From a virus (Duplodnaviria > Heunggongvirae > Uroviricota > Caudoviricetes), in IMG/VR virus record IMGVR_UViG_2563366856_000003, positions 1 through 35,867 of that record: a stretch of DNA of 35,867 bases. The stretch is one strand, 5' to 3'. A program made the translations under genes and the position numbers. Shown here piece by piece: positions 3,592-28,939 of this stretch. The notes under the pieces were generated by a model that ran no database searches, was not told where the DNA came from, and saw only the letters and a list, made by a program, of their open reading frames with translations. Numbering within the stretch: the first letter of the stretch is position 1; each line of letters begins with the position of its first letter.

Positions 3592-6039
3592 TTAACCGTC
3601 ATGCATCATGCTGGCACGGGCGCGCGCACGTTTATCCCGCTCGTATTTTTCGAGCGCATCCTGTAACTGGCGGTCAAGCTGTGTCCCCGGTGCAGTACCA
3701 CCCGTCAGGCTGATGTGATATTCGTTTTTACTCTGGTCCACATAAGAGCGGCCAGCCGGTGCCGTGACCGGCTGATAAGCCTGATAACCTGCATAAGAGC
3801 TGGTCGCCGGAATATAACCACCGCTGCCATACGTGGCGGCTTGAGTTCTGGCGGCGGTCTGGTCAAGTGTGTCTGACTCTTTGTTGATAACACCGAGTTT
3901 TTCCAGTACCCAGTCAATACCACTGCGCAGTTTGTTGAACGCATTAAGCGGCAGCATCAGCGCGTCAGCCAGTGCCTGCCCGAACATGACGCCCGTGTCA
4001 CGGCAACGGTTCAGGGTGTCCTGGGTAGCTTTGACCGGGGCAATCAGGTTTTTAAACCACTGCCACGCGGCCTGTAACTTTTCACCCAGCCAGTCAAACA
4101 CCGGCTTAAGTGGCGTGAACAGTTCCCCCACTGGCGCAAATGCTGCTTTCAGCCCTTCAACCACACCGCCAAAGAATGCGCTGACAGGCTCCCAGTATTT
4201 ACGGATAAGCAACGCCCCGGCGACAATGGTGGCCACCACGGCCACAACCGGCCAGCTAATCGCCCCGATGGCGGTCATAACAGCACTGCCAACCGTCGTG
4301 AAGACTGCCCCCATTGCGCCTGCTGCCGCGATGATGGCATTAATGCCGGTGATAACCGGCCAGGCTACAAGACCAATTGCACCGATGATGCCAGTAAGCG
4401 CCAGTGCACCACCGACAATAAGGCCGATGGTTGACGCCAGTGATTTGTTTTTCTGGATCCAGCCGTCGAGTTTTAACACATACTTTGTGGCCGTCTGCGT
4501 GAGCTTACGCAGTGCGCCTTCCTGCTGGTCAAACAGGTCAGTCCCCACCGCCTCATAAGCGGACTGAAACTCCTTAAAGTCACCGCCGAGGTTGTCCTGC
4601 ATGATATTTACCAGCTCTGCGCTCTTTCCGTCTGAGGCTTTAAACGCAGCGGTCAGTTTGTCCAGCTTTCCGGTTGAGGCGGCAGTCATCAGCACGGCGG
4701 CGGCTGAACTGGCCTCCTCCCCGAAAATGGTTTTCATGTATTCAGCCTGCTGGGCAGTACCGAGCCGGTTTTTCTCAAAGCTGGCCTGCATTTCTTTCAG
4801 AATGGTAAATACTGGCCGGGTGTTTCCCTTACTGTCTGAGGTTTTCACGCCAAGCTCTTTCAGTGCATCCCATGCTTTTCCCGTCGGTGCCTGCAGGCGG
4901 CTTAACACGGCACGGCTTCCCGTCCCCGCCATTGAACCGGTAATTTTTGCATCATGCAGCGCCCCGACCATTGCGGCGGTTTCTTCAATGCTGACACCAG
5001 CATTTTTTGACACAGGTGCGGCATAGGTCAGCGCATCGCTCATGCCATCAAAATCGGCGGCGGTTTTGTTCATCGTCATGGAGAGAACATCCCCGATATG
5101 AGCGACCTTATCGTTTGAAAGCTGAAAGGCGGATTTCATCCCCATCAGCAGGGCGGCGTTTTCTTCCATCGTGCGGCGGTTCGCCAGCGCCATGTTCAGC
5201 GTGACCGGCGTTGCCGCCTGAATGGCATCAACATCCCCACCCGCTTTCGCGATGATAATCTGTGCACCGGCTGCATCATCTGCCGAGGCGGCGGTATTGT
5301 CGCCGAGCTGGCGCGCCTGCTTGCGTAGCGCGGCCATTTCGGCAGAGTCTTTTTCCACACCGAGCACGGCCTGTAATTCTGAGTTTTTCTGCGCAAACTC
5401 ATAACCGGGCATCAGCAGCTTAACTCCGGCCATCGTTCCCGCCGCCGCAATACCCACACCGGCAGCGCCCACCGAGGCCATATTTCCGGCCAGTTCCTTT
5501 CCGACCTGATAACGCTGTTTTACTGCATTAAGTTTTGCCTGTTGCGCACTGACACGCGCCAGCGCATCACGCTGACGGTTAAGCTGTGTGGTGGTTTCGC
5601 TGATACGATTTTTCAGCCCTCGTTCATCATGCGCCAGATTACGGGTATTAATACCCGCCTGACTCAATTCCTGACGCTGGCGCTGTACCGACAATCTCAG
5701 GCTGTTATATTTCGCCTGTAACTCAGACGCGTTTTTACGCGCGGCTTCCATTGCCTTTGCCTGTGCATTTGTCGGTCGTTCAGTATTTGTAAACTGGACA
5801 GCCAGAGCTGCGGCTTCCTGTCTGGCTTTTTTCAGTTCCTGACCAGTCACGGCTAGCTGTGCACTGGTCTTGCGGAATCCCTCAATACGGGATGCGTGAC
5901 CGTTCAGCTCGCGCAGCGATTTTTGTGTTTCCCGGATGTCCCCCGACAGCGACTTACTCGCTGTGCGGATGGATTTAAACGGGCGGGATGCCTGGTCAAC
6001 AGCCCTGAGCAATACCTTTAATTTTACATTGTTACTCAT
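3592..6039 (-). CDS. T: Tail tape measure protein T
   Basis: 815-aa ORF, coiled-coil N-terminus, Gly/Ala-rich hydrophobic middle; same length as P2 gpT. Confidence 0.95.
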   Translation of the reverse strand: MSNNVKLKVLLRAVDQASRPFKSIRTASKSLSGDIRETQKSLRELNGHASRIEGFRKTSAQLAVTGQELKKARQEAAALAVQFTNTERPTNAQAKAMEAARKNASELQAKYNSLRLSVQRQRQELSQAGINTRNLAHDERGLKNRISETTTQLNRQRDALARVSAQQAKLNAVKQRYQVGKELAGNMASVGAAGVGIAAAGTMAGVKLLMPGYEFAQKNSELQAVLGVEKDSAEMAALRKQARQLGDNTAASADDAAGAQIIIAKAGGDVDAIQAATPVTLNMALANRRTMEENAALLMGMKSAFQLSNDKVAHIGDVLSMTMNKTAADFDGMSDALTYAAPVSKNAGVSIEETAAMVGALHDAKITGSMAGTGSRAVLSRLQAPTGKAWDALKELGVKTSDSKGNTRPVFTILKEMQASFEKNRLGTAQQAEYMKTIFGEEASSAAAVLMTAASTGKLDKLTAAFKASDGKSAELVNIMQDNLGGDFKEFQSAYEAVGTDLFDQQEGALRKLTQTATKYVLKLDGWIQKNKSLASTIGLIVGGALALTGIIGAIGLVAWPVITGINAIIAAAGAMGAVFTTVGSAVMTAIGAISWPVVAVVATIVAGALLIRKYWEPVSAFFGGVVEGLKAAFAPVGELFTPLKPVFDWLGEKLQAAWQWFKNLIAPVKATQDTLNRCRDTGVMFGQALADALMLPLNAFNKLRSGIDWVLEKLGVINKESDTLDQTAARTQAATYGSGGYIPATSSYAGYQAYQPVTAPAGRSYVDQSKNEYHISLTGGTAPGTQLDRQLQDALEKYERDKRARARASMMHDG

Positions 6040-7047: not shown

Positions 7048-8238
7048 TTAATTGCTGTTAACCGAGGTAACCAGACTTGCCAGGTATCTGGAAGTAATAC
7101 GCTGGCGCAGGGTCAGGTTTTCGAGAGGAGGCACCGGGGTATAGTCGTAGTCGATATACAGTTTTCCGGCCTTGAGGGTTTCCGCATCATTGGCTTCTTC
7201 ACTGAACCAGCATGTGCCATCCACGATATAACCGTTGTTTTTCAGTTCGCGGAATTTGGCATTAATGCCATCAATGATGTCACGAATCAGCGTTGCGGTA
7301 ATTGGCTTATCAATAGCCCACATGTGCGCCTCGGCCATCGTGTCGGCCAGTACCTGCGCGGTGCGGGTGTAGCTTTCAAAGAGGAACAGCGGGTCATCAG
7401 AGCAGGTACGGTTACCCCAGAAGCGGAAGCCGTCGCGGCGAATCAGCGTAGTGATGCCTGACTCGTTAAGCAGGTCAGCATCAGTGCCGGACTTCTGCAA
7501 ATCCCAGAATACAGAGGCGCTGATGCCGGTAACACCATTTACCCCGACGTTGGACAGCGTTTTATGCCAGCCCTGCTCCTGGTCGATTTTGGCACGCAGC
7601 CCCAGCGCACGGGCGGTGGCATACGCGGTGGCAGTGGTACTGGTAACCGTATCCCATGCGAGGAAATCCGGCCAGATGACCATCAGCTCACGCTGGCTGA
7701 AATTCTGACGGTAGGCTTTTGCCTCGGAAATGGTTTTACAGCCCCATGAGCTGATATACCCGAATGCATTCAGTTCCTGGCATACCGATGCCAGTGCGAC
7801 GGCAACCTCTTTGGTATCCAGCCCCGGCACACCAAGAATGCGCGGTTTAACGCCGGTAACCGACTCAGCCCCCATCAGGGCTTTCAGTCCGGTGTACTGA
7901 CCGTTTTCGTCAGTGGTGCCGATGATATTGGAAACGGTCTGCGCGAGTTTCGTTTCCTCGTCGTCGCCGGTGCCGTCTTCCACACGCACGACAACAGTGA
8001 CCGGTTTTGACTGGTCGGCGATAGCCTGCAACGACGCCGCCAGCGTGCCTTTTTTACCGGCCTTTGCAATTGCGCTCTGTACATTGGTAATCAGCACCGG
8101 TTTATTGACGGGGAAGGTTTCCGCATCCGCATCGCTGGCCGTGCAGACCATGCCGACAATGGCCGTGGATACGGTGGAAATGACGCGGGTGCCGTCGTTA
8201 ATCTCCAGCACCTGCACGCCGTGATGATAGTCACTCAT
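7048..8238 (-). CDS. FI: Tail sheath protein FI
   Basis: 396-aa product from internal ATG (MSDYHHGVQVLEINDGTRV...) of the 446-aa ORF; matches P2 gpFI start and length. Confidence 0.9.
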   Translation of the reverse strand: MSDYHHGVQVLEINDGTRVISTVSTAIVGMVCTASDADAETFPVNKPVLITNVQSAIAKAGKKGTLAASLQAIADQSKPVTVVVRVEDGTGDDEETKLAQTVSNIIGTTDENGQYTGLKALMGAESVTGVKPRILGVPGLDTKEVAVALASVCQELNAFGYISSWGCKTISEAKAYRQNFSQRELMVIWPDFLAWDTVTSTTATAYATARALGLRAKIDQEQGWHKTLSNVGVNGVTGISASVFWDLQKSGTDADLLNESGITTLIRRDGFRFWGNRTCSDDPLFLFESYTRTAQVLADTMAEAHMWAIDKPITATLIRDIIDGINAKFRELKNNGYIVDGTCWFSEEANDAETLKAGKLYIDYDYTPVPPLENLTLRQRITSRYLASLVTSVNSN

Positions 8239-8851
8239 CCGTTTAACTCCGTGGTTAATGGGTGCAACTATTTTCTGTTGTGCGAAGCATGAGACGCTAT
8301 TTGACCTGGCTGGGCAGTGGATGAAACAACAGATAAAGAAAAAGTGGGCAACTTGCCCGCCTCTATTTATTGCGGTATACCCAGCCATTCAGGATTTGTT
8401 GCTACTCATAATTACCTGCAAAGAAACAAAGAAAAGATGAAAATACAAGCTGTCTGGTACAAAGAAATCCATCAGACTTCCAACACCCCATACATGTGCC
8501 CCCACCACGGTATGCTGCTCCGCTTCCCTTTGCGGATATTTTCTATCCATCGATTTTCAGCCAGGATATGCACGTGCGCGATGAAGAATGTCACACTACT
8601 ATTGCCTTGTAAGCCCAGTTCCCGGTAAGAATAGCAACCAGCATCTGCGCTGCTACAGCACAAAGCGAGTGTATATTTGGGGGGAATATCCTTCATAAAC
8701 TGTTCGACGAAACCACGCTGTGGTTTCTCTTGTTATCAAACCGAGTGGCATTATCACTAGTTTTACTAAATTACCAACTTCACTGTGAATGATATGCATG
8801 ATAGAATCAGAAAATTAAATTATACAGATCTTAATCAATTCCGCGTTTTAT

Positions 8852-8877
8852 GCCCGTTGCTTCCACGGGCTTTTTTT
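8852..8877 (+). terminator. Intrinsic terminator (plus strand) inside the FI-H cargo island
   Basis: GCCCGT-TGCTTCC-ACGGGC hairpin followed by TTTTTTT. Confidence 0.5.
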
Positions 8878-8972
8878 AAAAAATCACCTAAAATAAATAA
8901 TTATATTCACTTTTATTCTAATACAGAATAGAATATGAAATCGTCAATTTGTACCATTAATTTTCAAATCTT

Positions 8973-9002
8973 CCCCGCCTTCGAGAGAATGCGGGGCTTT
9001 TT
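8973..9002 (+). terminator. Possible second intrinsic terminator (plus strand)
   Basis: CCCCGC / GCGGGG stem with a long 12-nt loop followed by CTTTTT; weaker than the first. Confidence 0.3.
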
Positions 9003-9150
9003 ACATGAGTACAACTTCACATTAACTATTTTTATACTTATAATTTGCTTTGCTTAAAAATGTTCAAAATGTACGCCAACATATTTAATTATGCTGATTT
9101 TATCACCAACAAAACTATCACCATGCAAACAATCCCTCGTGTTAGTTATA

Positions 9151-9166
9151 CTGCAATGCATTGCAG
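9151..9166. promoter_or_regulatory. 16-bp perfect palindrome upstream of the phase-variable ORF (candidate regulator binding site)
   Basis: CTGCAATGCATTGCAG is its own reverse complement; lies about 115 bp upstream of the ATG at 9281; a TATAAT hexamer is at 9212-9217. Confidence 0.35.
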
Positions 9167-9280
9167 CATGATGTGCTGATGACTTCATTAAATCATGTCA
9201 CAATGTTCAGATATAATGCTTCATGTTATGAGATAGCATTCTGAATATTCATAAACATTATTAACGTTAGAGGTTGCATA

Positions 9281-9515
<235 letters not shown>

Positions 9516-9544
<29 letters not shown>

Positions 9545-10649
9545 TTGCCCTTATTATACTATAAAAGGCAATACTATAAAAGGCAACACTAAAAAAGAAA
9601 ACATTTCATCTTCTGCTGTTTTAACAACAGCCCTGCATACTTCTCTTCTAAAAATCACAACGGTAATTAATGAAATTAATTCTATTTATCCCTTTGATGT
9701 CTCAGTTGTTATTCCGGTTCACAACCGAGAAACCCTTATTCTCGAATGCATTAAATCTTTAAACAATCAGACTATAGATAAAAATTGTTTTGAAGTTATT
9801 TTCATTGATGACTGTTCCACTGACAGGAGCATTGCCGCCATTGAATATAACATTTCGAGAGAAATAAATTATCGTATTATCCGTAGAGCAGTTGGTTCAG
9901 GGAATGCATCAGCGCCGCGAAATGAGGGAATAAAATCCGCAAAAGGTCGCTATGTGTTTTTCTTAGACTCTGATGATTCCATTCACTCTGACTTACTGTC
10001 CGATGGTATTCAGATGGCTTATAAAAACAATAGTGACATTGTATATTTCAAGCAGGTTTCCTCTACAGGGAGAGGGGTTCCTGTACGCCCATTTAAGGCA
10101 GACACGAATAAAGCAGATATTATAAAAAACCATCTTTTTAGATCATTAAAAATCTTCAAGTTCTTTAAAAGAGAGTTGCTAATCAATAACAACATCTTAT
10201 TTAACCCATCAATTTCAGTCTATGAGGATATGCTTTTTTCTTGCCAGAGCCTAACTGTAGCTAATACGATATCTATACTGGCAAGAAAGGGCTACTACTC
10301 TCTGAATCGCCATGAAGAACCACATCTATCTAAAACATCTTTCTCCATTAAACAAAGAGCCTTGGTATTACAAACAGGTTTGATTTATATCTTATCAAGC
10401 AATAAAAATGAAGCAGAAATAGTAAAAATGTTTAATGCATGGCTGGTTATTTGCGTTGAGCACTTGGCATCCATATTATCCAAAAAAAGTTTAACAACTA
10501 ATGAGAAGTCTCACGTTTTTAACTTGATACATAAATCACTCTTACCATATACAGGGCTTGTAAATGAGTCCCAAATATATCCCGCACAAAGAGAGCTTGT
10601 CAGTTGCTTAATCTGTGGAGATTATTCTTCTTTTTGCGAAAAAATATAA
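9516..10649 (+). CDS. Family 2 (GT-A fold) glycosyltransferase, probable surface-polysaccharide-modifying lysogenic-conversion gene
   Basis: 377-aa ORF with VVIPVHNRE...IFIDDCSTDRS and DSDD (DXD) motifs typical of GT2; the annotated start is a GTG immediately after the repeat with no usable RBS and there is no in-frame ATG upstream of the domain; AT-rich. Confidence 0.8.
9558..9602. repeat. 15-bp tandem repeat (about 2.5 copies) in the glycosyltransferase 5' region
   Basis: ACTATAAAAGGCAAT / ACTATAAAAGGCAAC / ACTAAAAAAGAAAAC, encoding TIKGN-TIKGN-TKKEN. Confidence 0.8.
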
Positions 10650-10688
10650 AAACACTTAACTACAGATACTCCTAACTTTGTATCTGAC

Positions 10689-10718
10689 GCCCCTCACCCT
10701 AAATTAAGGGTGAGGGGC
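10689..10718. other. Perfect 11-bp GC-rich hairpin between the convergent glycosyltransferase and tail-fibre genes
   Basis: GCCCCTCACCC-TAAATTA-GGGTGAGGGGC followed by A8 on plus strand; not a canonical terminator for either strand (U-run precedes the hairpin on the minus strand). Confidence 0.6.
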
Positions 10719-10860
10719 AAAAAAAATAATTATTTGATGTTATATTTATATGCCATCACATCTTTTAACTCCAGTTGTTACGGGGAGGACAGTGACTCGT
10801 ATCAACTAAAGTTTGATCTGTAGATAACACTATTTTAAGCAGATACTCATTAAGGCTTGT

Positions 10861-13719
10861 TTATTCTGAAGTCTCCAACTTCATCAAACGATGATTTAAG
10901 TCAACAAAGCGTTCCATTAACAAATCCACCTGGCTGACAACAGCACATAGACACCACCAGAGAAGCTCCTCTTTCCGGAAGCGATAACGGCTTCCTGCTT
11001 CGGTTGCAGGGCGAACAAGAACCCTTTCCGCCTGTCGGGTAAGCACACGAGTTGTCCCGCTCAACAGCTCCCCTTCATCCGAATAAATCGCTGGCTGAAC
11101 CGGAATATCTTCATACTCTTCCGGTATATCTTCGTACTGTGCCTCCTCCGCTTCCCACGAATCCAGACAAAATGCGCTGTATTTCCGCCAGTCCAGACCG
11201 TGTTTCTCCATCACCGCTATCGCGGCCTGGACTGTCGGCCCGGCGTGCAGACGCGCGTCCTCGCCCTCCTCCTCAATTCTCTGTAACCAGCGCCACACGC
11301 CCGGAAGCCGTGCTATTTCTGCAAATGCCGCGTTTTCGGCTGCCGTCGCATCGCGCGGTGTATCCTTTAACGTCGCATCCGACACAACGGTCGGCGAGTT
11401 GCAGAGATACACGCTCCGGAACGCTTTGTTGGGCGCACCCAGGTCGCTGGTATTGTTAACCGATGGCCGGAATGCACCGTTAATATCTGTATCCATCTGC
11501 ATGAATGCAGTGCCGTCACTACGGGCTGCAATTACATAAGCGTCAGCAGAATCGTCATAAATACCCAGATTCCCGGCTGTTGATACCTGGAAAGCTCCCG
11601 CCTTCAGCGTGGTGCTGATGGCCATGCGCTTCTGGGTTTCGTCATCCGATTTAATATTCACGCCCTGCAGGTATGCCACATTCCAGCGATTTGGCGATGA
11701 CCCCAGATTCATTGCCTTGTCCTGGTCGGGATGAAATGCCGGCGAGACCGGACTCAATAATACAGACCAGGTCTCACTGCCATCGGTACAATAAAGCCTT
11801 GTGCGCCCCGCCGACTGAGTATCGTTCATTGAGTAAAGGTTAATCCCGCCACCGCTCAACAAATCCACGTCAGCGCGTATTTCCAGACAATCGTGCACGG
11901 TGTTCAGTCGGTGTTTCCACTGAACGAAGCGGCCTGTGTATTCTCCGGTTCGGAACGCATCCCCGTACAAACGAAAAACAGCAGCAGAAGTGTCTGTATC
12001 CGGAGCCTCCTTTCTGACCTCAAATAACGGGCGATGCGAGCGCAGATTCTGCTCATAGGCTGCCACCTGGAAGTCTTCATTGGGTGACAGGGCAATATTT
12101 ACAGCATTGGGACTCAGAAAAAGGCTAGCATGGCTGTCAGGAAACGCCACGCCGGAGTCCACCAGATAGCCTGTGCCGTCGTAAGCCTCCACGGAAACCA
12201 CAGCTTTGCTGCGTTTTGTCGCCACGCCACACGTATAAGACTTCGTGGCATCATATTTCGTTGCAGCCGCCGTTCCATATGCTGTAGGCGTCCAGTAAGA
12301 TGGATTCACCGGGGAACGGCCAGAAAAATTTGTTGCACGTGCTGCAAAGTATGCCCCCTCAAAAGAAACCACATCGGCTGTCTGACACCAGAAATCCATA
12401 TCGAGCAGATACAGTTTTCCGTTATGAAGAGCCAGCCCTTCGGCTTCCTGCAAAACGGGATACCCCAGCTCTGCATTCCCCAGCATTTTCTGGCGGCCAT
12501 ACCTGGCACGAACGCCATCCACATTGAACTGTCTGACAACTTCGCCCGTTGACAGGTTATATACAACAATGCGGTGAGTCAGAAATACGCCTGTATAACC
12601 GTAATAAGCAAACAGATAATGACCATCGCTGGCCATCCCCTGAAATGCCTGCGACACCATTGACTGGGTGGACAGATAAATCCGGTGTTTAAACGTCAGA
12701 GAAGCGCGATCGAAAACATAAACTGTGCGGCGGTCATCCCTGTTGTAATGAAGATGGACGGCTTCATTACTTGACTGAACAATCAACAGGCTTCCGTCTA
12801 CCGACAATGCCACCGTTATAATTTCATCCCCGGTAAAAAAGTCAGAGGTGAAAATCTCCGTACGGGTGACATCTGTCAGACTGGTGTCAGCCCCATTCCA
12901 GTTGATGATATTCACACCCTTGCCGTCAGCGGTCGGGGTATACAGCATCACGCGACCGTCTTCACATACAGCCCCGATACTCTGGTGACCAATATCAGCG
13001 AAAACGGGAGAAAACGAAATGACCGTCGGGTTTTCGTTTTCTCCGTCAGGGTTAAATGTCGTTTCAACAATCCTTACGCCACCCGATACAGGCTGATGCA
13101 GAAACATTCTGGTTCCCTGCGGCGTATCACAGATACAGAACCCCTGACTCATATTATCCGCACCGTCAAAAATCCCGGCGTAGTCAATATCGTGGACAAC
13201 TTTATGCTGAAGAACCACATCATCAATGACAGTACGATGAAAACTGGATATGGCTTTATCGACGTAATCCTGCGTCGCCATCACCGTGCTGGCATCAATA
13301 CTCAGCTCAACAGACGCCACGTTACTGACAATAATAACCATGCGGCAGGTCTGCGCACGCCCGGAGCCTTCAGCCAGTTCAGGCTTATAGCTTTCTGCCA
13401 TGTTAGCGACCGCAATCAGTGTTCCGGCATCGTCATACAGACCAAGTTCACGCATCCAGAAGCCGCCCACTTCTGGCGGTACAACCAGTTCAGCCACGAT
13501 ATAGTTTTTATTCTTGTTATCCACGCTGACTTTATTCAGGGCGTGACGCCAGACCTCATGCACCAGTTTCGTCTGACCAGCATCCGGCACCGGCAATTTG
13601 CCATTACCGTCACCCACGGCCATTGCAGACAGGGTTACTTTTTTCCCGCCGGGGACAGTGGCGGCTGCCAGCTTTGCGGCTCCGGCAGTAGTGATAACGG
13701 TTTTAAATTTCGTGCTCAT
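10861..13719 (-). CDS. H: Tail fibre protein: gpH-like N-terminus, non-P2 central/receptor-binding region, candidate C-terminal intramolecular chaperone domain
   Basis: 952-aa ORF; first about 150 aa match P2 gpH (MSTKFKTVITTAGAAKLAAAT...GGFWMRELGLYDDAGTLIAVANMAESYKP), the rest is unrelated; C-terminal region contains an S-D-x-x-x-K motif (SDATLKD); no gpG-like assembly gene follows. Confidence 0.85.
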   Translation of the reverse strand: MSTKFKTVITTAGAAKLAAATVPGGKKVTLSAMAVGDGNGKLPVPDAGQTKLVHEVWRHALNKVSVDNKNKNYIVAELVVPPEVGGFWMRELGLYDDAGTLIAVANMAESYKPELAEGSGRAQTCRMVIIVSNVASVELSIDASTVMATQDYVDKAISSFHRTVIDDVVLQHKVVHDIDYAGIFDGADNMSQGFCICDTPQGTRMFLHQPVSGGVRIVETTFNPDGENENPTVISFSPVFADIGHQSIGAVCEDGRVMLYTPTADGKGVNIINWNGADTSLTDVTRTEIFTSDFFTGDEIITVALSVDGSLLIVQSSNEAVHLHYNRDDRRTVYVFDRASLTFKHRIYLSTQSMVSQAFQGMASDGHYLFAYYGYTGVFLTHRIVVYNLSTGEVVRQFNVDGVRARYGRQKMLGNAELGYPVLQEAEGLALHNGKLYLLDMDFWCQTADVVSFEGAYFAARATNFSGRSPVNPSYWTPTAYGTAAATKYDATKSYTCGVATKRSKAVVSVEAYDGTGYLVDSGVAFPDSHASLFLSPNAVNIALSPNEDFQVAAYEQNLRSHRPLFEVRKEAPDTDTSAAVFRLYGDAFRTGEYTGRFVQWKHRLNTVHDCLEIRADVDLLSGGGINLYSMNDTQSAGRTRLYCTDGSETWSVLLSPVSPAFHPDQDKAMNLGSSPNRWNVAYLQGVNIKSDDETQKRMAISTTLKAGAFQVSTAGNLGIYDDSADAYVIAARSDGTAFMQMDTDINGAFRPSVNNTSDLGAPNKAFRSVYLCNSPTVVSDATLKDTPRDATAAENAAFAEIARLPGVWRWLQRIEEEGEDARLHAGPTVQAAIAVMEKHGLDWRKYSAFCLDSWEAEEAQYEDIPEEYEDIPVQPAIYSDEGELLSGTTRVLTRQAERVLVRPATEAGSRYRFRKEELLWWCLCAVVSQVDLLMERFVDLNHRLMKLETSE

Positions 13720-13729
13720 TGTTTCTCAC

Positions 13730-14260
13730 TTATCCGGGATAAACAGTAATAACATCACCATCACAGACCACACCGCCTGTATACAGATAGCCGGGAATGT
13801 CCTGGATAATGTTCAGACCGATAAGGTGGCGACTTGCGGGTTTGGCATCGGCAATCAGCCGTTCCATTTCCAGATACATCTCCTCCGTGATGCCGCTTTC
13901 CAGTACGCCGATATCAAGGCGGAATGTTCCGGGCGGGTCGTTTGTCTCCCACCATTCCTTTACGTTAATTAGATAGCCTAGCGGCTCCACCACACGCCGG
14001 ATTGCACCTATAGTGCCTTTATGACAGTGGATGAAATACGCATCGCGGATAACGGCGCGTTTTGTCGCTTCCGGCCACTTTTCATCCCATCTGTCGACCG
14101 AAAACGCCCACGCCAGCCACGGCAGCAGATTTGCCGGGCAGGTGTCCGGGTTCCACAGCTCACGAATACTGACCGGTGTTTTTTCAATTTCCGCACAGGC
14201 TTTTGCGGCGGCGACCTCAAGCGGTGATGAGCCGGTCGGCAGCAGTCGCGAATCACTCAT
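13730..14260 (-). CDS. I: Baseplate assembly protein I
   Basis: 176-aa ORF matching P2 gpI. Confidence 0.95.
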   Translation of the reverse strand: MSDSRLLPTGSSPLEVAAAKACAEIEKTPVSIRELWNPDTCPANLLPWLAWAFSVDRWDEKWPEATKRAVIRDAYFIHCHKGTIGAIRRVVEPLGYLINVKEWWETNDPPGTFRLDIGVLESGITEEMYLEMERLIADAKPASRHLIGLNIIQDIPGYLYTGGVVCDGDVITVYPG

Positions 14261-15161
14261 CCGAGCCTCCGGTCACGACGCGGTATTCAGTACAGAAAGA
14301 CGCCTGCGTGCTGTTAAGCACGATATCGGCCAGCGGTGCAGCCAGTTCGACACGCTGCACGCCTTCCACATGCAAAGCGGCATAAATGGCAGACAGACGG
14401 ATGTCGCGCCCCAGCCGGTGCTGTGCCGTGATGTACGCTTCCAGTTTTTTCACGGCAGCAGCGCGGATGGGTTCGCTTTCGGGACCAGGGTAAAGGTAAA
14501 GCGTGGCGTTTATCTGGTATTCAACAATGGCGGCAGACTGCACGGTCACGCGGTCGGCCACCGGTCTGACGTCCTCGCCATTCAGGGCGTTACGCACCAC
14601 CGCCAGCAGGTCTTCGGATGCGACACCGTTATTCTCACGTGACAGCACAGAGATGGTGACGCAGGCCGGAGACGGACTGGTGACAGAGATATCCGCGACA
14701 CGCCCGTCAGCACTGCGACCATGATACTGATAGGCACCCACCGACCCGGCGACGCTTAAACCTTCAAACGCCTGCTGAATACGCAGACGATAATCGGTAT
14801 CAGATTCCATCACTGCCGGTGTCGGCGGGATAGTCGAATCATCTGCCGGGGTGATAGTCAGACGCGTGGTGTTGTAATTGGCACCAATCACATCAAGGTC
14901 ATTACCCGCGGCACAGGCCAGCATCACCGCCCGTGCGGCCTCATTCACACGCTGACGCCAGATAAGCTCACGATAAGCATTTTCCTCCAGCAATTTGACG
15001 AGAGGCTCGGATTCCAGCGTCAGGGTACGGGCGACCGCCTCCTGCTGGGCTTCCGGGTAAAGGGAAATCAGTGTCGCCTTGCGTTCGGCGAGAATGGTTT
15101 CAAAGTCCAGCTCCTCGACCACATCCGGTGCGGGTAGCTGGTTCAGGTCGATAATCGGCAT
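14253..15161 (-). CDS. J: Baseplate assembly protein J
   Basis: 302-aa ORF matching P2 gpJ; overlaps I start. Confidence 0.95.
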   Translation of the reverse strand: MPIIDLNQLPAPDVVEELDFETILAERKATLISLYPEAQQEAVARTLTLESEPLVKLLEENAYRELIWRQRVNEAARAVMLACAAGNDLDVIGANYNTTRLTITPADDSTIPPTPAVMESDTDYRLRIQQAFEGLSVAGSVGAYQYHGRSADGRVADISVTSPSPACVTISVLSRENNGVASEDLLAVVRNALNGEDVRPVADRVTVQSAAIVEYQINATLYLYPGPESEPIRAAAVKKLEAYITAQHRLGRDIRLSAIYAALHVEGVQRVELAAPLADIVLNSTQASFCTEYRVVTGGSDE

Positions 15162-15165
15162 GGTT

Positions 15166-15513
15166 TCAACTCACAGGGATGGTTAACGAAAGTGGCTGGC
15201 CGGTGTCGTTGTGCTGGCCGGTTAAGGTGACCGTCATTCGCCCGTCAAAACTGCGCTCAGTGGTGACGGATGACAGGGTGACGCGGGGTTCCCATTTCAG
15301 CACCGCCATGTAACAGGCGACCTTAATCTGCAACTCAAGCGCCGGGGTCTGCGGCTGGTCAATCATTGACGCCAGCAACGAGCCGTAATCACGACGCATC
15401 ACCCGCGAGCCGACCGGTGTGCGCAGGATATCGCCGATACTCTGGCTGATATGCTCAAGGTCAGTGACAGTCAGGCCATCACTGCAATTCATTCCGAGAT
15501 AACGCGCTGTCAT
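15166..15513 (-). CDS. W: Baseplate protein W
   Basis: 115-aa ORF matching P2 gpW. Confidence 0.95.
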   Translation of the reverse strand: MTARYLGMNCSDGLTVTDLEHISQSIGDILRTPVGSRVMRRDYGSLLASMIDQPQTPALELQIKVACYMAVLKWEPRVTLSSVTTERSFDGRMTVTLTGQHNDTGQPLSLTIPVS

Positions 15514-16145
15514 AGAGGGCTCCCGGTTGTGCCGCCGCTGTCGCCGGGGTGTTTATGGGTATGCAGTACCTTACCGTTTGATGAGAGTTCACCGCCGGTG
15601 TGTTCAATGTTGCCGCGCATCGTCCCGCCCTTCTGCACTTCCAGCGTGCCGGTAATCAGCCTGTTGGTGCAAACCACCTCCGGTGTGTCCAGGGTGACGC
15701 GGGTTGATGCTTTCACCATGACCACCGGCACCGTGGCAGTAACAGAATCAGAAGCCGTCACGCTGGCCGTTTTAATTCCGCTTACCGTGAGTGCACTGGT
15801 TTCGGGTTCATACTCAATCACCGCCCCGTCAGGGAAACGGATATGCAGGGCATCCGCCGACGCAGACGGCGCGGGGTTATCGCCGGAATAAATCCCCGGC
15901 AGAACGAACGCCGTGTCGAGTTCACCGCCCACAGCCAGAATCAGCACCTGTTCCCCCACGGAAGGTGCCCACCATGTGCGCGAACGTCCGGCACGATGGG
16001 TCAGCCACTGAAGCCAGTCAGTGCACATGCCACCGGTCTGCACACGGCAGCGACCGGCTTTAAGGTTGGTTTCGACGACAAGGCCGGTACGAATCATGTT
16101 GCGCAGTGCGCGCGCGAGTTCCTGAATATTTGCGAGAGTGTTCAT
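15510..16145 (-). CDS. V: Baseplate spike protein V
   Basis: 211-aa product from ATG at 16143-16145 (MNTLANIQELARALRNMIRTG...) matching P2 gpV; the ORF-track start 16163 is probably too long. Confidence 0.9.
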   Translation of the reverse strand: MNTLANIQELARALRNMIRTGLVVETNLKAGRCRVQTGGMCTDWLQWLTHRAGRSRTWWAPSVGEQVLILAVGGELDTAFVLPGIYSGDNPAPSASADALHIRFPDGAVIEYEPETSALTVSGIKTASVTASDSVTATVPVVMVKASTRVTLDTPEVVCTNRLITGTLEVQKGGTMRGNIEHTGGELSSNGKVLHTHKHPGDSGGTTGSPL

Positions 16146-16228
16146 GCGTGTGAGATTGCACAATATATAAAAGTTATGCTATCTGGATTCATTTGTAGAA
16201 CGACCATACAACATTCGAGGAGAGCGTA

Positions 16229-17014
16229 ATGTTCAGTGATAATGTGACTAATGCGTGGTGGTTTATCTCTTTGTATCTATTTTTATTAATAGCATTAACA
16301 TTTATTACCTTTGGTAAAAGTAATCTTATGAGGTTTATTGCACATCATTTCAATTTTGAGTATTCAGACAGAAAGTTAAAAATGCTCGACAAAAAATGGC
16401 GCGACATTCAACTATTTAAAATAATTAACGGAATCAATGTATCAGGCATCGAAGATGTGAGAATGATACAGCAGGGGCTGATTGATGGAAAACTAAAAAC
16501 ATCGTATTTTTTTCTTACTCGCTTCTGGGGTGACATAACAAAACCACCACACATAATTAAAACAATAATTGTAATTCTGTCCAGCATTATTTATATTCTC
16601 TTCGCATGTTATATACACAACAAACAATCCGCTATAGTAAGAGATGCCATAGGCATACCATATAAAAATATGATGTACTATGTTTATAGTGACAAAGTTC
16701 TTTTATCCTTCAACAATAAAACAGTTGAATTCAATAAAACTTATAGCCTTGCCGATTGCAAGAGGCTACGAAACATATTTATAAAAGACACACTTCCTGA
16801 GATCGCCTGCAATAAGCTCTTACAGCTAAACGAGGAGGACTCGGAATGGTTAAGTCAGGAGATTAAAGATAATAACAGCCAAAAAAAAGCATTATTAATA
16901 ATATCCCTCATCTATTTCATTTCAGGTCTGGTTATATTCCTGTCATATACAAAATTCCTTTACGCCAATAAGAAGGTTGTAGAATACAAAGCATCAAATA
17001 AAAATCACTCATAA
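16229..17014 (+). CDS. Hypothetical membrane protein (three predicted TM helices), AT-rich moron opposite to the late genes
   Basis: 261-aa ORF with strong GGAGAG Shine-Dalgarno; hydrophobic segments at N-terminus, middle and C-terminus; lysine/asparagine-rich; occupies the P2 orf30 position between V and S. Confidence 0.7.
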   Translation: MFSDNVTNAWWFISLYLFLLIALTFITFGKSNLMRFIAHHFNFEYSDRKLKMLDKKWRDIQLFKIINGINVSGIEDVRMIQQGLIDGKLKTSYFFLTRFWGDITKPPHIIKTIIVILSSIIYILFACYIHNKQSAIVRDAIGIPYKNMMYYVYSDKVLLSFNNKTVEFNKTYSLADCKRLRNIFIKDTLPEIACNKLLQLNEEDSEWLSQEIKDNNSQKKALLIISLIYFISGLVIFLSYTKFLYANKKVVEYKASNKNHS

Positions 17015-17019
17015 GCCTC

Positions 17020-17056
17020 TAAACATTGAGCGACCAGCATGGCCGCTCAATGTTTA
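17020..17056. other. 13-bp perfect inverted repeat between the convergent moron and S genes
   Basis: TAAACATTGAGCG ... CGCTCAATGTTTA with 11-nt loop; no flanking U-run. Confidence 0.6.
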
Positions 17057-17085
17057 ATTGCGCATCAGCCTCTGCCTGGATAAAA

Positions 17086-17538
17086 CTAACGCTCAAGGTG
17101 AGCCAGGATAATCTCTTCAATCATCTGCACATCCTCACCGGTAAAGCCGAGCAGAGGACGCGCCGGATAATCAATTTTCTTACCGTCTTTCCGGGTTTCT
17201 TCCGACAGACCGAACTGATGCACACTGGCGATTTTCGGCGACTTCCCGCCGTAAAATTCCATTGATGCCTGTTCCGGGCTGGCGCGGATATGCAAAAAAC
17301 GACTGGTAATAAGTTTCGCAAACATTTTTCGCTTAACGCGACCGGTCTTTTTTCTGGCGCTCTGCTGCTGACGTGGCGCGTAGGGGGTGCCGTCCGGGGC
17401 TTTCTGTGCCATCACCCGACGCTGCTGACTCTGACGCAGACGTTTCGCCAGTTCGGCGCTCAGTCGCCGACGCCCTGACGGTGACAGCGATTCAATCAGC
17501 CCGGTCAGCCGGTCTTCAAAACGCTTAAACTCATTCAT
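17086..17538 (-). CDS. S: Tail completion protein S
   Basis: 150-aa ORF matching P2 gpS. Confidence 0.95.
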   Translation of the reverse strand: MNEFKRFEDRLTGLIESLSPSGRRRLSAELAKRLRQSQQRRVMAQKAPDGTPYAPRQQQSARKKTGRVKRKMFAKLITSRFLHIRASPEQASMEFYGGKSPKIASVHQFGLSEETRKDGKKIDYPARPLLGFTGEDVQMIEEIILAHLER

Positions 17539-17998
17539 CCCACTTACTCACCAGTTCGCCATTGATATAAAGCTCCATCGGGCGGGTGACCGGCTCCGGC
17601 GGCGGGGGTTCCGGGATATTCTTCACATGCAGCGCGCCGCCCACCTCACTGACCAGCGTGCGTTCGGTCAGCATCAGGCTGATACTGATATCAAAGCTGC
17701 TGTCATTGTTGATGTCTGCATAAAACGTGAAGCCTTTTTTCTGGCCTTCGTCGGTGGTCATGATGTCGGGCTGATTTTCCCGCAGCCACGCCAGCACCGG
17801 CACGATGAGCAGGTCAAAATCACCGGTAAAATCGGTCACAATGACATTGAGCGTGTAACGCTTTTCGAATGACAGCGACGTCGCCAGTGTGGAGGCAATA
17901 CTCCCGTTATCCACGAATATCCGAAGCATATCGGGGTTAGTTTTCAGCACCGTGACGGCATCAGTCAGCGCCCTGCGCAGGCTGTCGGGTTTGAGCAT
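17531..17998 (-). CDS. R: Tail completion protein R
   Basis: 155-aa ORF matching P2 gpR. Confidence 0.95.
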   Translation of the reverse strand: MLKPDSLRRALTDAVTVLKTNPDMLRIFVDNGSIASTLATSLSFEKRYTLNVIVTDFTGDFDLLIVPVLAWLRENQPDIMTTDEGQKKGFTFYADINNDSSFDISISLMLTERTLVSEVGGALHVKNIPEPPPPEPVTRPMELYINGELVSKWDE

Positions 17999-18251
17999 CG
18001 TTTTCGTCCTGACAGTGTTTAATCATTTTTACCTGGCTGGCACAGCGTGCCAGCGCGTTCTCAAGCTGCCGGATATCGGCACTTAAATCGCCGTTCGTCT
18101 GCGGGTCACTGCCCGGCATCGGGCAAAGACTCACTTTCGGGCAGGCGTTGTGGACAATCACTGGCGTCGGTGCAGGCGGGGCGCTGGTGCAACCGGCGCA
18201 CAGCATCAGGCAGGTCAGCGCCATACCAGCGGCGGAAATCTTCGTTTTCAT
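17961..18251 (-). CDS. lysC: Outer-membrane spanin lipoprotein LysC (Rz1-like), nested in lysB in a different frame
   Basis: Internal ATG at 18249-18251 gives MKTKISAAGMALTCLMLCAGC... with lipobox, proline-rich; embedded in the 3' part of lysB. Confidence 0.8.
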   Translation of the reverse strand: MKTKISAAGMALTCLMLCAGCTSAPPAPTPVIVHNACPKVSLCPMPGSDPQTNGDLSADIRQLENALARCASQVKMIKHCQDENDAQTRQPAQGAD

Positions 18252-26293: not shown

Positions 26294-26434
26294 ACACCCC
26301 GTCATCACGCCCTCACACGCTCACCACCGCACAAAACACCCCGCAGACACACCAACGCCCCGGCGCACAATCTAAACGCCATCACGACGCGCTGAGACGC
26401 TAAAAAATAAAATCAGCACCACCGCCAGCGCGCA

Positions 26435-26453
26435 GTGCTTTCCCCGCCTCGCC
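26435..26453. other. cos: cos site (19-nt cohesive end of P2-type phages)
   Basis: GTGCTTTCCCCGCCTCGCC is the reverse complement of the recalled P2 cohesive end GGCGAGGCGGGGAAAGCAC; located after Q as in P2. Confidence 0.7.
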
Positions 26454-26595
26454 CGCCCGCTTCGTGGGGCGGTTTTAATGCAGATGCATTATGAGCCCTG
26501 AGCTGCGCCTAACGTGACACAGTTCACGAGAAAAATAGGAATTATCAAATGCAATTTCATGCAGATAGAGAGGCATGAGATCCCGAAGCATATAT

Positions 26596-27948
26596 TCAAC
26601 CCTCTGCCGAAATATTTCTTTGGAGAAATGCTCTAATTTTTTGCCTGAAAGCCTCACATTCATCAGGCTTTAACCTCTCAAGGTATTCAAAAACCCTAGT
26701 TTCATCCCAGCCGTTGTTATAGGTTTTCACTACCCCTCGATAAACTTGCTTATCAAGTTTATCGTTACCTCTAGTTGTAACTCTCGGGATCGATTCATCT
26801 TGGCCGTATGCTTGATAGAAATCCTTCTCAACGCTTTGGAAAGGTATGCATAAAATATTTTCACCTCGAGCATGCCTTTGACCTAATTGATCTCCGTCTA
26901 ACACTGAGATCACATTCTGTTGAGTCGTGAGAAAGCTCTCTCTCTCATTACGACGCATTAAATCAATGACATTAGTTCCTCCACCAACATATATTATTTT
27001 ATATTCGTAGAAGTAATCATTCCCAGGAGCATTAATTATATATTCTAAGAAATTTTGCAGAACTTCATCTTCAGTAAGAATGTACTTATCCCATCCTTTA
27101 AATCCAAAAAGCGTACTTTTTATATAATTATATGATCGATTTGTAATTGTAGTTCCAGCATCACCTTCGCACATATAGTACAATTCATCATCATTCAGCG
27201 TTTGCATTAAAGCAAGTGAATGTGTTGTGAATACAATATTCACCGAGTGTCTCTGACAATATTTCCTTAGCACTGCTATAAGATGGACTTGCGCCGAAGA
27301 GTCTAGTGATATATCTATCTCATCTATGACAATGAATTTTCTTTTGAGCTCAATCATTCTAAATAAATTCAAAATAAAATACTCACCCGAGCTAAAGTAA
27401 TCCTCCCTTATGTATGTTCCGTTCTCATTCAATCTGAAATAGAAAATTTCATTTTTTACAGAAAATGCTTTAAGATTATTGTAAGAAGAAGACTGATATA
27501 CCTCATTGAGTATATTTATCAAATCCTCGGGAACGCTATAGCTTTCAAACGCAATACTTTTTCTAAGTTCAGTATCAATTTTACTAAGTGTTGGGAAGTT
27601 ATTGAACCTCATTCCATGAGGAATGGGCAACTCGACATAAAGATTGGATTTTATATCTGCTGGAATTATTTGCTTAGTATCTATTACCTTCAAATTCTCA
27701 TCATAGACATATACTATATCTTGATCATTAATATTATATACTATACTACTGTCAGGATTGAATATATATCTAGAAGATGTCTTTATGAATGTATCTGCTG
27801 ATTGTAAATTTTTAATTGCTTTGATTAGCGTTGTCTTTCCAGCACCGTTCTTTCCTACAATGCAAGTCAGTTTATTTTCAGAAAGATCAATAGCAAATGA
27901 CATATGTTCAACATGCTGGATTTTCGAGATCTCAATGTTTATTTTCAT
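26596..27948 (-). CDS. OLD-like ABC-type ATPase with C-terminal Toprim-like region (candidate effector of RT-associated defence system)
   Basis: 450-aa ORF: Walker A GKNGAGKTT, signature-like SSGEYF, Walker B FIVIDEID, H-loop TTHS, then TEDE ... VLDGDQ resembling Toprim Glu and DxD; ATG one base after the RT stop; AT-rich. Confidence 0.8.
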   Translation of the reverse strand: MKINIEISKIQHVEHMSFAIDLSENKLTCIVGKNGAGKTTLIKAIKNLQSADTFIKTSSRYIFNPDSSIVYNINDQDIVYVYDENLKVIDTKQIIPADIKSNLYVELPIPHGMRFNNFPTLSKIDTELRKSIAFESYSVPEDLINILNEVYQSSSYNNLKAFSVKNEIFYFRLNENGTYIREDYFSSGEYFILNLFRMIELKRKFIVIDEIDISLDSSAQVHLIAVLRKYCQRHSVNIVFTTHSLALMQTLNDDELYYMCEGDAGTTITNRSYNYIKSTLFGFKGWDKYILTEDEVLQNFLEYIINAPGNDYFYEYKIIYVGGGTNVIDLMRRNERESFLTTQQNVISVLDGDQLGQRHARGENILCIPFQSVEKDFYQAYGQDESIPRVTTRGNDKLDKQVYRGVVKTYNNGWDETRVFEYLERLKPDECEAFRQKIRAFLQRNISAEG

Positions 27949-27949
27949 T

Positions 27950-28939
27950 TTAATTTACATTCTTGTAAAAAAGCATATCGACAATCGTATTTCCGTATTT
28001 TCTCTTTAGCTTATCGAGATAACTCTTATCAATTGTGTTTATATGATTCAAAAGACCAGAAACTGTATTAATGCCCTTTTCCAAGATCTCACTATCATTC
28101 AATCCGCTAGTTTTAACCTTAGGATCTTTTATTATAGAATCTATAAATTTATCTTTATCCGTTACATAAAAATGAATCAAATGCTCAAGCTTTCTTTTTA
28201 TTTTAATATCAACAGAGACTATCTGAGACGGTAAAATAACCATCCCCAGCAGCTTAATCTTACTGCCTTTTTTAATCAATTTAGTTTTTGCTGAGTTTAG
28301 TTTGAAATGTCCCTTCCCAAACTCACCCAGCAGGTCACTTACTACAGAATGAATATTCTCAAAGCCCTCATCATTTTCAGAGGAAATAATAATATCATCT
28401 GAATAGCGTGTGAATATATATTCATGGTTAATACAATATTGCTGCATCTCAACATCAAAGTCATATAAACATGCATTGCTGAAAGCTGGTGATGTCGGGA
28501 ACCCTACAGGCAACGAATTATCGATAATAATATAATCTAAAATTTTATCCAAGTGTATATTTAAATCGGAAATGGGAACGTTCGATAAGTTATCAACTAA
28601 AACTGATCGTGCATATTCACGAGTTATCGATGGGAAAAAGCTTTTAATATCAGTATTGAAGAATATCTTACTACAGGCGTGAAGTTTTACTGCATCATAA
28701 GTGCTGCTTCCTTTTCTATACGAAAACACAACATCCTTATTTACTTTCAAGTATGAAAGAACAAATTCATTTATGAATTTGTGATACTCTTTTAGTTTAG
28801 AAGTGGGCTCAGCAATTAACCTTTCATCAAAGGTTATAAATTTAGTTTGTTGAAATGGTTCAAACGAAAGAAAGTTTTGAAAGGAATCTTTTTCGAAGAA
28901 TGCAATATTGAAGGCTTTTTCGAGACTAAGGGGTTTCAT
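27950..28939 (-). CDS. Reverse transcriptase, retron-type size
   Basis: 329-aa ORF with RT motifs NTDIKSFFPSI (motif A-like), LPVGFPTSPAFSNACL (motif B'), YSDD (YxDD catalytic motif C); AT-rich; sits at the P2 old/tin position. Confidence 0.85.
   Translation of the reverse strand: MKPLSLEKAFNIAFFEKDSFQNFLSFEPFQQTKFITFDERLIAEPTSKLKEYHKFINEFVLSYLKVNKDVVFSYRKGSSTYDAVKLHACSKIFFNTDIKSFFPSITREYARSVLVDNLSNVPISDLNIHLDKILDYIIIDNSLPVGFPTSPAFSNACLYDFDVEMQQYCINHEYIFTRYSDDIIISSENDEGFENIHSVVSDLLGEFGKGHFKLNSAKTKLIKKGSKIKLLGMVILPSQIVSVDIKIKRKLEHLIHFYVTDKDKFIDSIIKDPKVKTSGLNDSEILEKGINTVSGLLNHINTIDKSYLDKLKRKYGNTIVDMLFYKNVN

Follow-up and report, generated by a model that had tools for sequence, protein, structure and literature searches.

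Morons, as described by Hendrix and co-workers, are said to be AT-rich genes that carry their own promoter and terminator and are inserted between phage transcription units. In the biology of P2, the convergent cargo and late units differ in the state in which they are expressed (lysogeny versus lytic growth), and Rho acts on the late operons, whose polarity is suppressed by P4 Psu. REP elements are dispersed, multi-copy intergenic palindromes, which can block 3' exonucleases and stabilise the upstream mRNA. In the annotation of phage P2 (AF063097; AF063097.1), a hairpin at positions 9397–9433, between S and orf30, is labelled "putative rho-independent terminator for O operon." The classical moron sites of P2-like phages are fun(Z), orf30, and TO (PMC6823313). 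Neither terminators nor hairpins are mentioned in the paper on P2 hotspots (PMC9122126) or in a 2026 paper on the diversity of P2-like phages. In E. coli, Rho-dependent 3' ends were found to lie just downstream of stable stem-loops; the stem-loops of Rho-dependent transcripts have a low U content, no upstream A-tract, and a mild excess of C over G downstream, and they protect the 3' ends against PNPase and RNase II (Dar and Sorek, 2018; PMC6061677).

Here, we describe two hairpins in a stretch of viral DNA of 35,867 nucleotides (IMG/VR record IMGVR_UViG_2563366856_000003), which is referred to below as the window. The hairpins had been pointed out in an earlier sequence-only reading of the window. 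At roughly even odds (a probability of about 0.5), both can be regarded as transcript-end stem-loops that may block exonucleases and define 3' ends where morons abut the P2 late operons, and that would be inefficient as intrinsic terminators. According to our best reading, they are at most weak terminators and ordinary structures, and they do not represent a novel type of element. Hairpin 2 corresponds to the putative feature annotated in P2, and hairpin 1 adds a new example to a class that is already known.

Genomic setting of the hairpins

The whole window represents a P2-like prophage with the gene order D-U-T-E-FII-FI, an island, H-I-J-W-V, a second island, S-R...O, P-Q, a third island, and A...int. 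The closest genomes were those of E. coli B-type strains (REL606, 99.4% identity) and a few others. The G+C content of the phage genes was 0.52–0.60 versus 0.30–0.44 in three AT-rich islands, and these islands are the classical P2 moron sites fun(Z), orf30, and TO. Each hairpin lies between convergent genes, namely an AT-rich cargo gene and a late structural gene (GT and H for hairpin 1, orf30 and S for hairpin 2), and this setting in a P2-like prophage had been recognised correctly in the sequence-only reading. The coordinates of all features are given in Table 1.

Table 1. Positions of the hairpins, flanking genes, and related features in the window (d, terminator discriminant).
Feature	Position	Strand	Description
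AT-rich islands (three)	~8400–10850; ~16200–17080; ~26400–29200		From the G+C profile
Canonical-type V-operon terminator	8344–8360	-	GCGGGCA-AGT-TGCCCAC, then TTTTTCTTTATCTG; terminator scan
GT2-family glycosyltransferase (GT), cargo	9516–10649	+	Pfam PF00535, E = 1.7e-28; G+C 0.35–0.36
Weak second inverted repeat CAGATAC/GTATCTG	10663–10686		Adjoins hairpin 1 on the GT side; -6 to -7 kcal/mol
Hairpin 1	10689–10718	both	GCCCCTCACCC (10689–10699), 8-nt loop TAAATTAA, GGGTGAGGGGC (10708–10718)
A8 run	10719–10726	+	Directly 3' of hairpin 1; equals U8 located 5' of the hairpin on the - strand
Gene in H position, final gene of late V operon	10861–13719	-	Pfam PF12571 and PF13884
orf30-type moron	16229–17014	+	261 aa, three hydrophobic (TM) segments; P2 orf30 match; G+C 0.33–0.41
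Extended interrupted lower stem around hairpin 2	17007–17069	- (S-sense)	-34.3 kcal/mol
Hairpin 2	17020–17056	both	TAAACATTGAGCG (17020–17032), 11-nt apical part, CGCTCAATGTTTA (17044–17056)
Gene S (tail completion), final gene of late O operon	17086–17538	-	Pfam PF05069, E = 4.9e-44; P2 annotation
Hairpin 3, without U-run	29044–29083		Seventh among local folds; -22.6 kcal/mol; d = -58 and -70

The cargo gene next to hairpin 1 encodes a glycosyltransferase (GT), in which no transmembrane segments were predicted. A tetranucleotide repeat, (AGCC)n, precedes the GT gene and switches its frame; this repeat near hairpin 1 is a more interesting feature than either hairpin. The gene in the H position joins the N-terminal domain of P2 gpH to a Pollock-like tailspike with an S74 chaperone domain. 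Its P2-type homology is restricted to positions 13258–13800 (the N-terminal 150 residues), and positions 10949–13226 have a DNA identity of 76% with the tail spike of the Schitoviridae phage Pollock. The G gene is absent after the H-position gene. The cargo gene next to hairpin 2, orf30, is called nonessential in the P2 annotation, and positions 16000–17300 of the window are 93% identical to phage P2. The Pfam scan covered seven ORFs.

Structure of the hairpins

The 11-bp stem of hairpin 1 is perfect, and it extends to 12 bp with a 6-nt loop if a T-A pair of the loop is included. As RNA, hairpin 1 has a folding energy of -28 kcal/mol for each of the two strands (z = -5.6 and -5.8), a value that none of 200 shuffles equalled. 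It is located 39 nt past the GT stop and 142 nt past the H stop. The stem of hairpin 2, a perfect 13-bp one with three additional apical pairs (CCA/TGG), folds at -24 kcal/mol on the + strand (z = -3.2) and at -34 kcal/mol on the - strand (z = -4.6), and it begins 5 nt past the orf30 stop and 29 nt past the S stop. The designation of both hairpins as GC-rich applies to hairpin 1, in which 9 of the 11 pairs are G-C, but not to hairpin 2, which has five G-C pairs in 13 bp.

In the whole window, four perfect inverted repeats with a stem of at least 11 bp and a loop of 3–12 nt were found, compared with a mean of 0.08 in 200 dinucleotide shuffles, which is an approximately 50-fold excess. The two hairpins are the first and third longest inverted repeats in the window; both are real at the positions where they had been reported, with the perfect stems described, and far exceed chance. 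Among the 44-nt local folds on the two strands of the window, hairpins 1 and 2 ranked fourth and sixth, respectively, with ranks 1–3 and 5 taken by the tetranucleotide repeat and by G+C-rich coding sites. A search of positions 8000–18000 against Rfam 15 returned nothing at the gathering score, and the matches below the threshold were generic hairpins such as mir-9256 (30 versus 80 bits).

Terminator properties

The discriminant d of d'Aubenton-Carafa, which adds a U-tail score to the hairpin energy per nucleotide, was negative for both hairpins: -33 (+ strand) and -21 (- strand) for hairpin 1, -45 (+) and -49 (-) for hairpin 2, and -35 for the extended S-sense stem of the latter; its absolute values are approximate because modern folding energies were used. 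The weak repeat adjoining hairpin 1 had d values of -62 and -89. In contrast, the controls were positive: +7 for the P2 V-operon terminator, +13 and +33 for the two strands of the Pollock terminator, +13 for positions 8852–8870 of the window, and +35 for the terminator following G in cargo-less phages. No U-tract was present on either strand at the foot of the perfect stems of hairpins 1 and 2, where the tails were AAAAAAAAUAAUUAU and GUCAGAUACAAAGUU (hairpin 1) and AUUGCGCAUCAGCCU and GAGGCUUAUGAGUGA (hairpin 2), and the terminator scan of the window called neither hairpin. Thus, both hairpins have the stable stem-loop of an intrinsic terminator and lack its U-rich tract and positive d. The A8 run at hairpin 1 is misplaced for a terminator of either orientation.

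In the sequence-only reading, both the lack of a canonical U-run and a role as non-canonical bidirectional terminators had been put forward. The former was borne out for the perfect stems on the two strands, with the qualifier that, on the S-sense strand, hairpin 2 has a weak extended stem and UUUUUAUUU (17004–16996) begins 2 nt beyond it. The latter is not supported by the sequence, in view of the d values and the missing U-tracts, as well as of the absence of A/U-tract symmetry: a bidirectional terminator has an A-tract 5' and a U-tract 3' of the stem, hairpin 1 has no 5' A-tract on the + strand, and hairpin 2 has neither tract. This A/U pattern was present in the Pollock terminator and in a chance match (L202).

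The canonical V-operon terminator was found elsewhere, where the island borders on FI, a short distance upstream of the pF promoter region. Its homologue in cargo-less P2-like phages, AGGCGGGC-TGAT-TGCCCGCCT followed by TTTCTTTATCTG, lies at most 4 nt after the tail-fibre assembly gene G, with the pF promoter next. The homology of the window to other P2-like phages stops at 8362. The retained terminator and the end of homology indicate that the cargo was inserted between the last late gene and its terminator. Between the H stop and this element, the scan called no canonical terminator on the - strand. Its location 2.3 kb beyond hairpin 1 suggests that hairpin 1 does not end the V operon, and, with the V terminator on the far side of the cargo, the GT island is probably traversed in the antisense direction by late transcription. 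In P2, the V-operon terminator is a canonical hairpin with a T-run between G and fun(Z), and only the 3' arm of the ancestral terminator is left at the FI-side edge. Both the terminator at the other edge of the island and the P2 annotation of hairpin 2 had been missed in the sequence-only reading.

It is nonetheless conceivable, if unlikely, that the hairpins are weak or non-canonical intrinsic terminators, hairpin 2 serving the O operon and hairpin 1 the V operon and/or the GT transcript, possibly with help from NusA, NusG, or collisions of converging polymerases. Both hairpins sit at the positions expected for operon terminators, comparable to that of the canonical P2 terminator between G and fun(Z), and hairpin 2 bears the P2 annotation. 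A further point in favour is the sequence that follows two of the stems: in the L119 allele of hairpin 1, the stem is immediately followed by UUU in the GT sense, and UUUUUAUUU lies within 2 nt of the extended S-sense stem of hairpin 2. This extended stem together with UUUUUAUUU could act as a weak intrinsic terminator, and this counts against our preferred reading. However, the absence of a U-tract at the perfect stems, the uniformly negative d values in contrast to the positive controls, the result of the scan, the misplaced A8 run, and the retention of the canonical V-operon terminator all argue against this alternative. Since the cargo and late units are active in different states, polymerase collision is unlikely as a normal mechanism. 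As for the P2 label of the O-operon hairpin as a "rho-independent terminator," it is not supported by a U-tract and is best treated as unproven.

Distribution and sequence variation

Hairpin 2 is identical to the annotated P2 hairpin (37/37 nt). A search of 5,426 complete E. coli genomes placed the hairpin 2 region in 464 of them, at 477 places (median 1, maximum 2 per genome), and among the 12 matches listed, all adjoin S. In 19 distinct orf30-type alleles, 0 of 29 sites were variable in the spacer between the S stop and hairpin 2, 1 of 26 in the stem arms, and 4 of 11 in the apical part, compared with 156 of 786 (19.8%) in the orf30 coding sequence; the difference between spacer plus stem arms (1/55) and orf30 was significant (Fisher p = 2e-4). 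This pattern of variability would fit a stem under selection. The hairpin 2 alleles contained no compensatory changes, and uncompensated stem changes are present in some E. coli alleles.

Comparison of the S-V interval in 72 related viral contigs revealed three forms, a 66-nt form (50 loci), a 940-nt form with orf30 (20 loci), and a 1040-nt form (2 loci), which are swapped exactly at the S stop and V start codons. The 66-nt form has no cargo gene and contains an unrelated hairpin without a U-run, GCCGCCGG-TATGAC-CCGGCGGC, located 31 nt past the S stop versus 29 nt for hairpin 2. The presence of a hairpin even in this cargo-less form indicates that a hairpin ~30 nt past S belongs to the end of the O operon.

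The pattern scan detected one copy of hairpin 1 in the window, even at 3 mismatches. Of the 5,426 complete E. coli genomes, 29 contain the 231-nt interval that holds it, at one place each, and a few viral and metagenome contigs contain this interval as well. Every copy, whether in E. coli, viral, or metagenome sequences, has this GT on one side and the 3' end of this tailspike on the other; neither the 29 E. coli genomes nor the related contigs of viral or metagenome origin had hairpin 1 beside any other cargo or tail gene. The hairpin 1 module, consisting of the Pollock-like tailspike H and the GT2 glycosyltransferase, is a rare, acquired one. Scans with the hairpin 1 pattern covered the window, viral contigs, species-representative genomes, and metagenomes and returned, outside the module, only chance matches, either in organisms of high G+C content or at unrelated terminators. 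No equivalent of hairpin 1 exists in P2. A dispersed repeat family (REP/ERIC-like) was considered and rejected, as hairpins 1 and 2 are tied to one locus each. A 10-mer, TATCTGACGC, shared by hairpin 1 and the G-proximal hairpin of L125 was also dismissed as a sign of homology, the match being short and in the opposite orientation.

Three alleles of hairpin 1 were compared, and all of them fold, at -26, -17, and -16 kcal/mol in the GT sense and at -26, -16, and -13 kcal/mol in the H sense. Among the stem differences between the alleles, one is a compensatory replacement of G-C by A-T, and several others produce wobble pairs or mismatches. The adjacent A-run is polymorphic, with 6–10 A in other genomes and TTTCATAAAAA in its place in L119, the most divergent allele, of 94% identity. 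Divergence from L119 was ~3–7% over most of GT, with higher values at the GT 5' end beside the repeat, then 11–12% around hairpin 1, and 1–2% from ~10768 into H. On the GT side as far as ~10768, hairpin 1 included, the difference amounts to ~5–12%. Because the divergence tracks the GT side and not H, the history of hairpin 1 is that of the GT cassette and not that of H. Hairpin 1 varies more than its flanks, which argues against strong constraint. Covariation was near-absent at both hairpins, whose sequences are too similar for a real test.

Some of these data would agree with the hairpins being functionless leftovers, either decayed imported terminators whose U-tract was lost or misplaced or neutral palindromes. 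Thus, hairpin 1 gathers uncompensated stem changes, diverges more than its flanks, and adjoins a run that ranges from 6 to 10 A, and little covariation was observed at either hairpin. We nevertheless consider this explanation quite doubtful. Perfect stems of 11–13 bp exceed chance ~50-fold in the window; the stem of hairpin 2 is conserved relative to its loop and to orf30 in the 19 alleles, in a region shared by 464 E. coli genomes; unrelated analogous hairpins occupy the same positions in other P2-like phages; and the three diverged alleles of hairpin 1 retain folds of -16 kcal/mol or better in the GT sense.

Hairpins and cargo boundaries in P2-like phages

P2-like phages repeatedly display one arrangement, in which the final late gene is followed by a hairpin that lacks a U-run and then by variable cargo. 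In phages with a 175-aa G, ~90 nt past the G stop are conserved and end in TGGCACAGAG...CTCTGTGCCA and GTCCGCTC...GAGCGGAC, neither with a U-run, and unrelated cargo starts within ~10 nt past these conserved hairpins. Where G is 200 aa long, its stop is followed after 9 nt by a strong hairpin that lacks a U-run and shows one compensatory pair. In the window, hairpin 3 borders the third AT-rich island. A large ORF (29266–31578), which by position is the replication gene A, ends ~180 nt upstream of hairpin 3, whose region had no match in the phage collection. At hairpin 2, conservation spans the interval from the S stop through the stem, and orf30 is fast-evolving from the foot of the hairpin.

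The adjacency of cargo and hairpins raises an explanation at the DNA level, in which the hairpins, as cruciform- or hairpin-prone sites, would be marks or substrates of illegitimate or site-specific recombination during the exchange of cargo cassettes. The three AT-rich islands correspond to the three classical P2 moron sites (PMC6823313), and several boundaries fall near hairpins: the cargo of G-bearing phages diverges ~10 nt beyond the conserved hairpin foot, the FI-side edge of the island coincides with the terminator hairpin at which homology ends and of which P2 has the 3' arm only, conservation stops at the orf30-side foot of hairpin 2, and the divergence step nearest to hairpin 1 is ~50 nt away on its H side. 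However, the S-V cassettes are swapped at the S stop and V start codons, 29 nt from hairpin 2 and not at it. The junction of the hairpin 1 island with the P2 backbone is inside H, near 13258, that is, 2.5 kb away, and hairpin 1 never accompanies another cargo or tail gene. No sequence is common to the hairpins of the three islands or to those of other P2-like phages, both hairpins are single-copy, and no recombinase was noticed beside them among the seven ORFs scanned against Pfam; the shared core and recombinase that characterise attC, dif/cer, and IS-end sites were not found in this scope. Moreover, selection by itself would be expected to leave boundaries at the last functional element of the backbone. 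A dedicated recombination role, in support of which we found nothing specific, is therefore improbable. It is less probable still that the hairpins without a U-run located behind the final gene of the late or early P2 operons (1, 2, 3, and the G-proximal ones) guide an exchange of moron cassettes among P2-like prophages, with the boundaries placed at their feet by mechanism and not by selection alone.

The proposal of the sequence-only reading that the hairpins mark the junctions of acquired cargo can accordingly be retained loosely for hairpin 2, where conservation ends at the stem, but it is weak for hairpin 1, whose island joins the backbone inside H. The comparison of cargo boundaries suggested there showed that cargo does adjoin hairpins in P2-like phages, but that the S-V swaps occur at codons. 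The simplest reading of the adjacency is that the hairpin is the last selected element of the backbone, so that everything beyond it is free to vary. In practice, the recurrent hairpin without a U-run may serve as a landmark for delimiting moron and defence hotspots.

Proposed role at transcript ends

Hairpins 1 and 2 match the class of stem-loops of Dar and Sorek and, on this basis, are read as protective stem-loops at 3' ends. RNA polymerase would read beyond the hairpin and make untranslated RNA, antisense and C-rich in the case of the cargo transcripts. Past the hairpin, transcription would be ended by Rho, or the RNA would be cleaved in the AU-rich flank; 3'-to-5' exonucleases would then trim the RNA to the hairpin foot and be blocked there, leaving a defined, stable 3' end. 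As the stem is a near-perfect palindrome, it could act on the transcript of either strand. Termination itself would be the task of Rho or of sites farther downstream. We infer Rho involvement, trimming, and read-through from features of the sequence.

The two hairpins may differ in the transcripts that they serve. Hairpin 2 would most likely act first on the O-operon (S) message and possibly, in second place, on the orf30 message. Hairpin 1 most likely serves the GT mRNA and would be carried with the GT cassette, while late V-operon transcription probably passes it, antisense over the cargo, up to the canonical V-operon terminator. The C/G ratio downstream of the hairpins was 1.38 in the orf30-sense RNA after hairpin 2, and 0.94 at 100 nt and 1.13–1.25 at 200–300 nt in the GT-sense RNA after hairpin 1; in the late-operon-sense RNAs, it was 0.65–0.88. 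With the late-sense ratios below 1, the Rho signature fits the cargo-sense transcripts only. Little would change for phage biology, as hairpin 2 is annotated and hairpin 1 is another transcript-end stem-loop.

Comparison with known systems

Like the members of the class of Dar and Sorek, hairpins 1 and 2 are stable 3' UTR stem-loops without a U-tail or an A-tract, and the host is E. coli. The 3' ends of that class were mapped, whereas hairpins 1 and 2 were recognised in the sequence. In our judgement, hairpin 1 exceeds a typical member in both stability and G+C content.

The P2 feature described as the O-operon terminator is identical to hairpin 2, and the label is a prediction for a stem with no U-tract at its foot. 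The terminator that follows the homologous tailspike in Pollock resembles hairpin 1 in being a G+C-rich stem-loop between convergent stops. In Pollock, however, the hairpin is preceded by an A-rich tract (AAAATAA) and followed by TTTTTATTA, whereas at hairpin 1 the A8 run comes after the + strand stem and there is no U-tract. The two hairpins share with REP elements the character of intergenic palindromes, but each is single-copy and confined to one locus.

The GT and orf30 islands agree with the reported moron architecture in that they are AT-rich, lie at classical sites, are transcribed against the late genes, and end in a hairpin. The differences are that the 3' hairpin is non-canonical here, and that hairpin 2 and its spacer, unlike a moron, are conserved in the manner of the phage backbone.

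Locations of the features in the window
Feature	Position	Strand	Description
Canonical terminator	8344-8360	(-)	FI-side edge of the cargo island
N-terminal ORF	9281-9544		ATG start; precedes the glycosyltransferase frame
(AGCC)19 tetranucleotide repeat	9436-9511		Between the N-terminal ORF and the GT2 frame
GT2 glycosyltransferase frame	9516-10649		
Chimeric gene at the H position	10861-13719	(-)	
Perfect inverted repeat	13007-13044		13-bp stem, 12-nt loop; within the H coding sequence
S-V interval	16146-17085		L036-L115 in related phages
orf30	16229-17014	(+)	Membrane moron
Perfect inverted repeat	26738-26764		11-bp stem, 5-nt loop; within a 450-aa ORF, TO island
Third stable hairpin without a U-run	29044-29083		-22.6 kcal/mol; d (d'Aubenton-Carafa terminator score) -58 and -70

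Additional hairpins and the terminator bordering the cargo island

In addition to the hairpins at 10689-10718 and 17020-17056, the window contained a third stable hairpin lacking a U-run, as well as two further perfect inverted repeats located within coding sequences. The third hairpin was situated approximately 180 nt downstream of the stop codon of a large ORF (29266-31578), which is gene A by its position, and bordered the third AT-rich island, of the type of TO, the third classical P2 moron site. The 400 nt surrounding this hairpin matched nothing in the phage collection. The FI-side border of the cargo island in the window has kept the canonical terminator that lies directly 3' of G in cargo-less P2-like phages. 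In P2 (L034, about 5010-5050), this terminator was reduced to the 3' arm and the T-run; thus, the junction of the fun(Z) cargo lies inside the old terminator.

Variation of the S-V interval

Comparison of the P2-like phages demonstrated that the forms of the S-V interval, at least three in number (66, 940, and 1040 nt), are mutually exclusive and that the limits of their exchange are exactly the stop codon of S and the start codon of V. The 66-nt form carried a G+C hairpin approximately 12 nt before the ATG of V, at the expected position of the pV promoter. Among 19 alleles of orf30, 19.8% of the sites were variable, and the changes were distributed nearly evenly across the codon positions (54/40/62), which suggests that purifying selection on this membrane moron is weak.

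Chimeric tailspike and the glycosyltransferase repeat

The product of the gene at the H position was chimeric: its N-terminal 150 aa corresponded to P2 gpH and were joined to a tailspike, the coding sequence of which shared 76% DNA identity with that of the tail spike of Pollock, a phage of the Schitoviridae. A Peptidase_S74 intramolecular chaperone was present in this gene, and the tail-fibre assembly gene G was absent after it. The pairing of the tailspike gene with a surface-sugar glycosyltransferase gene suggests a receptor-plus-seroconversion module.

The number of AGCC copies preceding the glycosyltransferase frame varied between the compared genomes (5, 10, 11, 19, and 23). Fusion of the ATG-initiated ORF with the glycosyltransferase frame requires a copy number divisible by three, and the ORF was truncated at all five of these copy numbers. 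The glycosyltransferase CDS of E. coli CUVM3 is annotated as 1353 nt, which implies 15 copies. Judging from the sequences, the repeat looks like a site of slipped-strand phase variation of the prophage glycosyltransferase in E. coli. A single literature search found no description of such phase variation; the putative switch is similar in style to the phase variation of Haemophilus or Neisseria, although the host here is E. coli.
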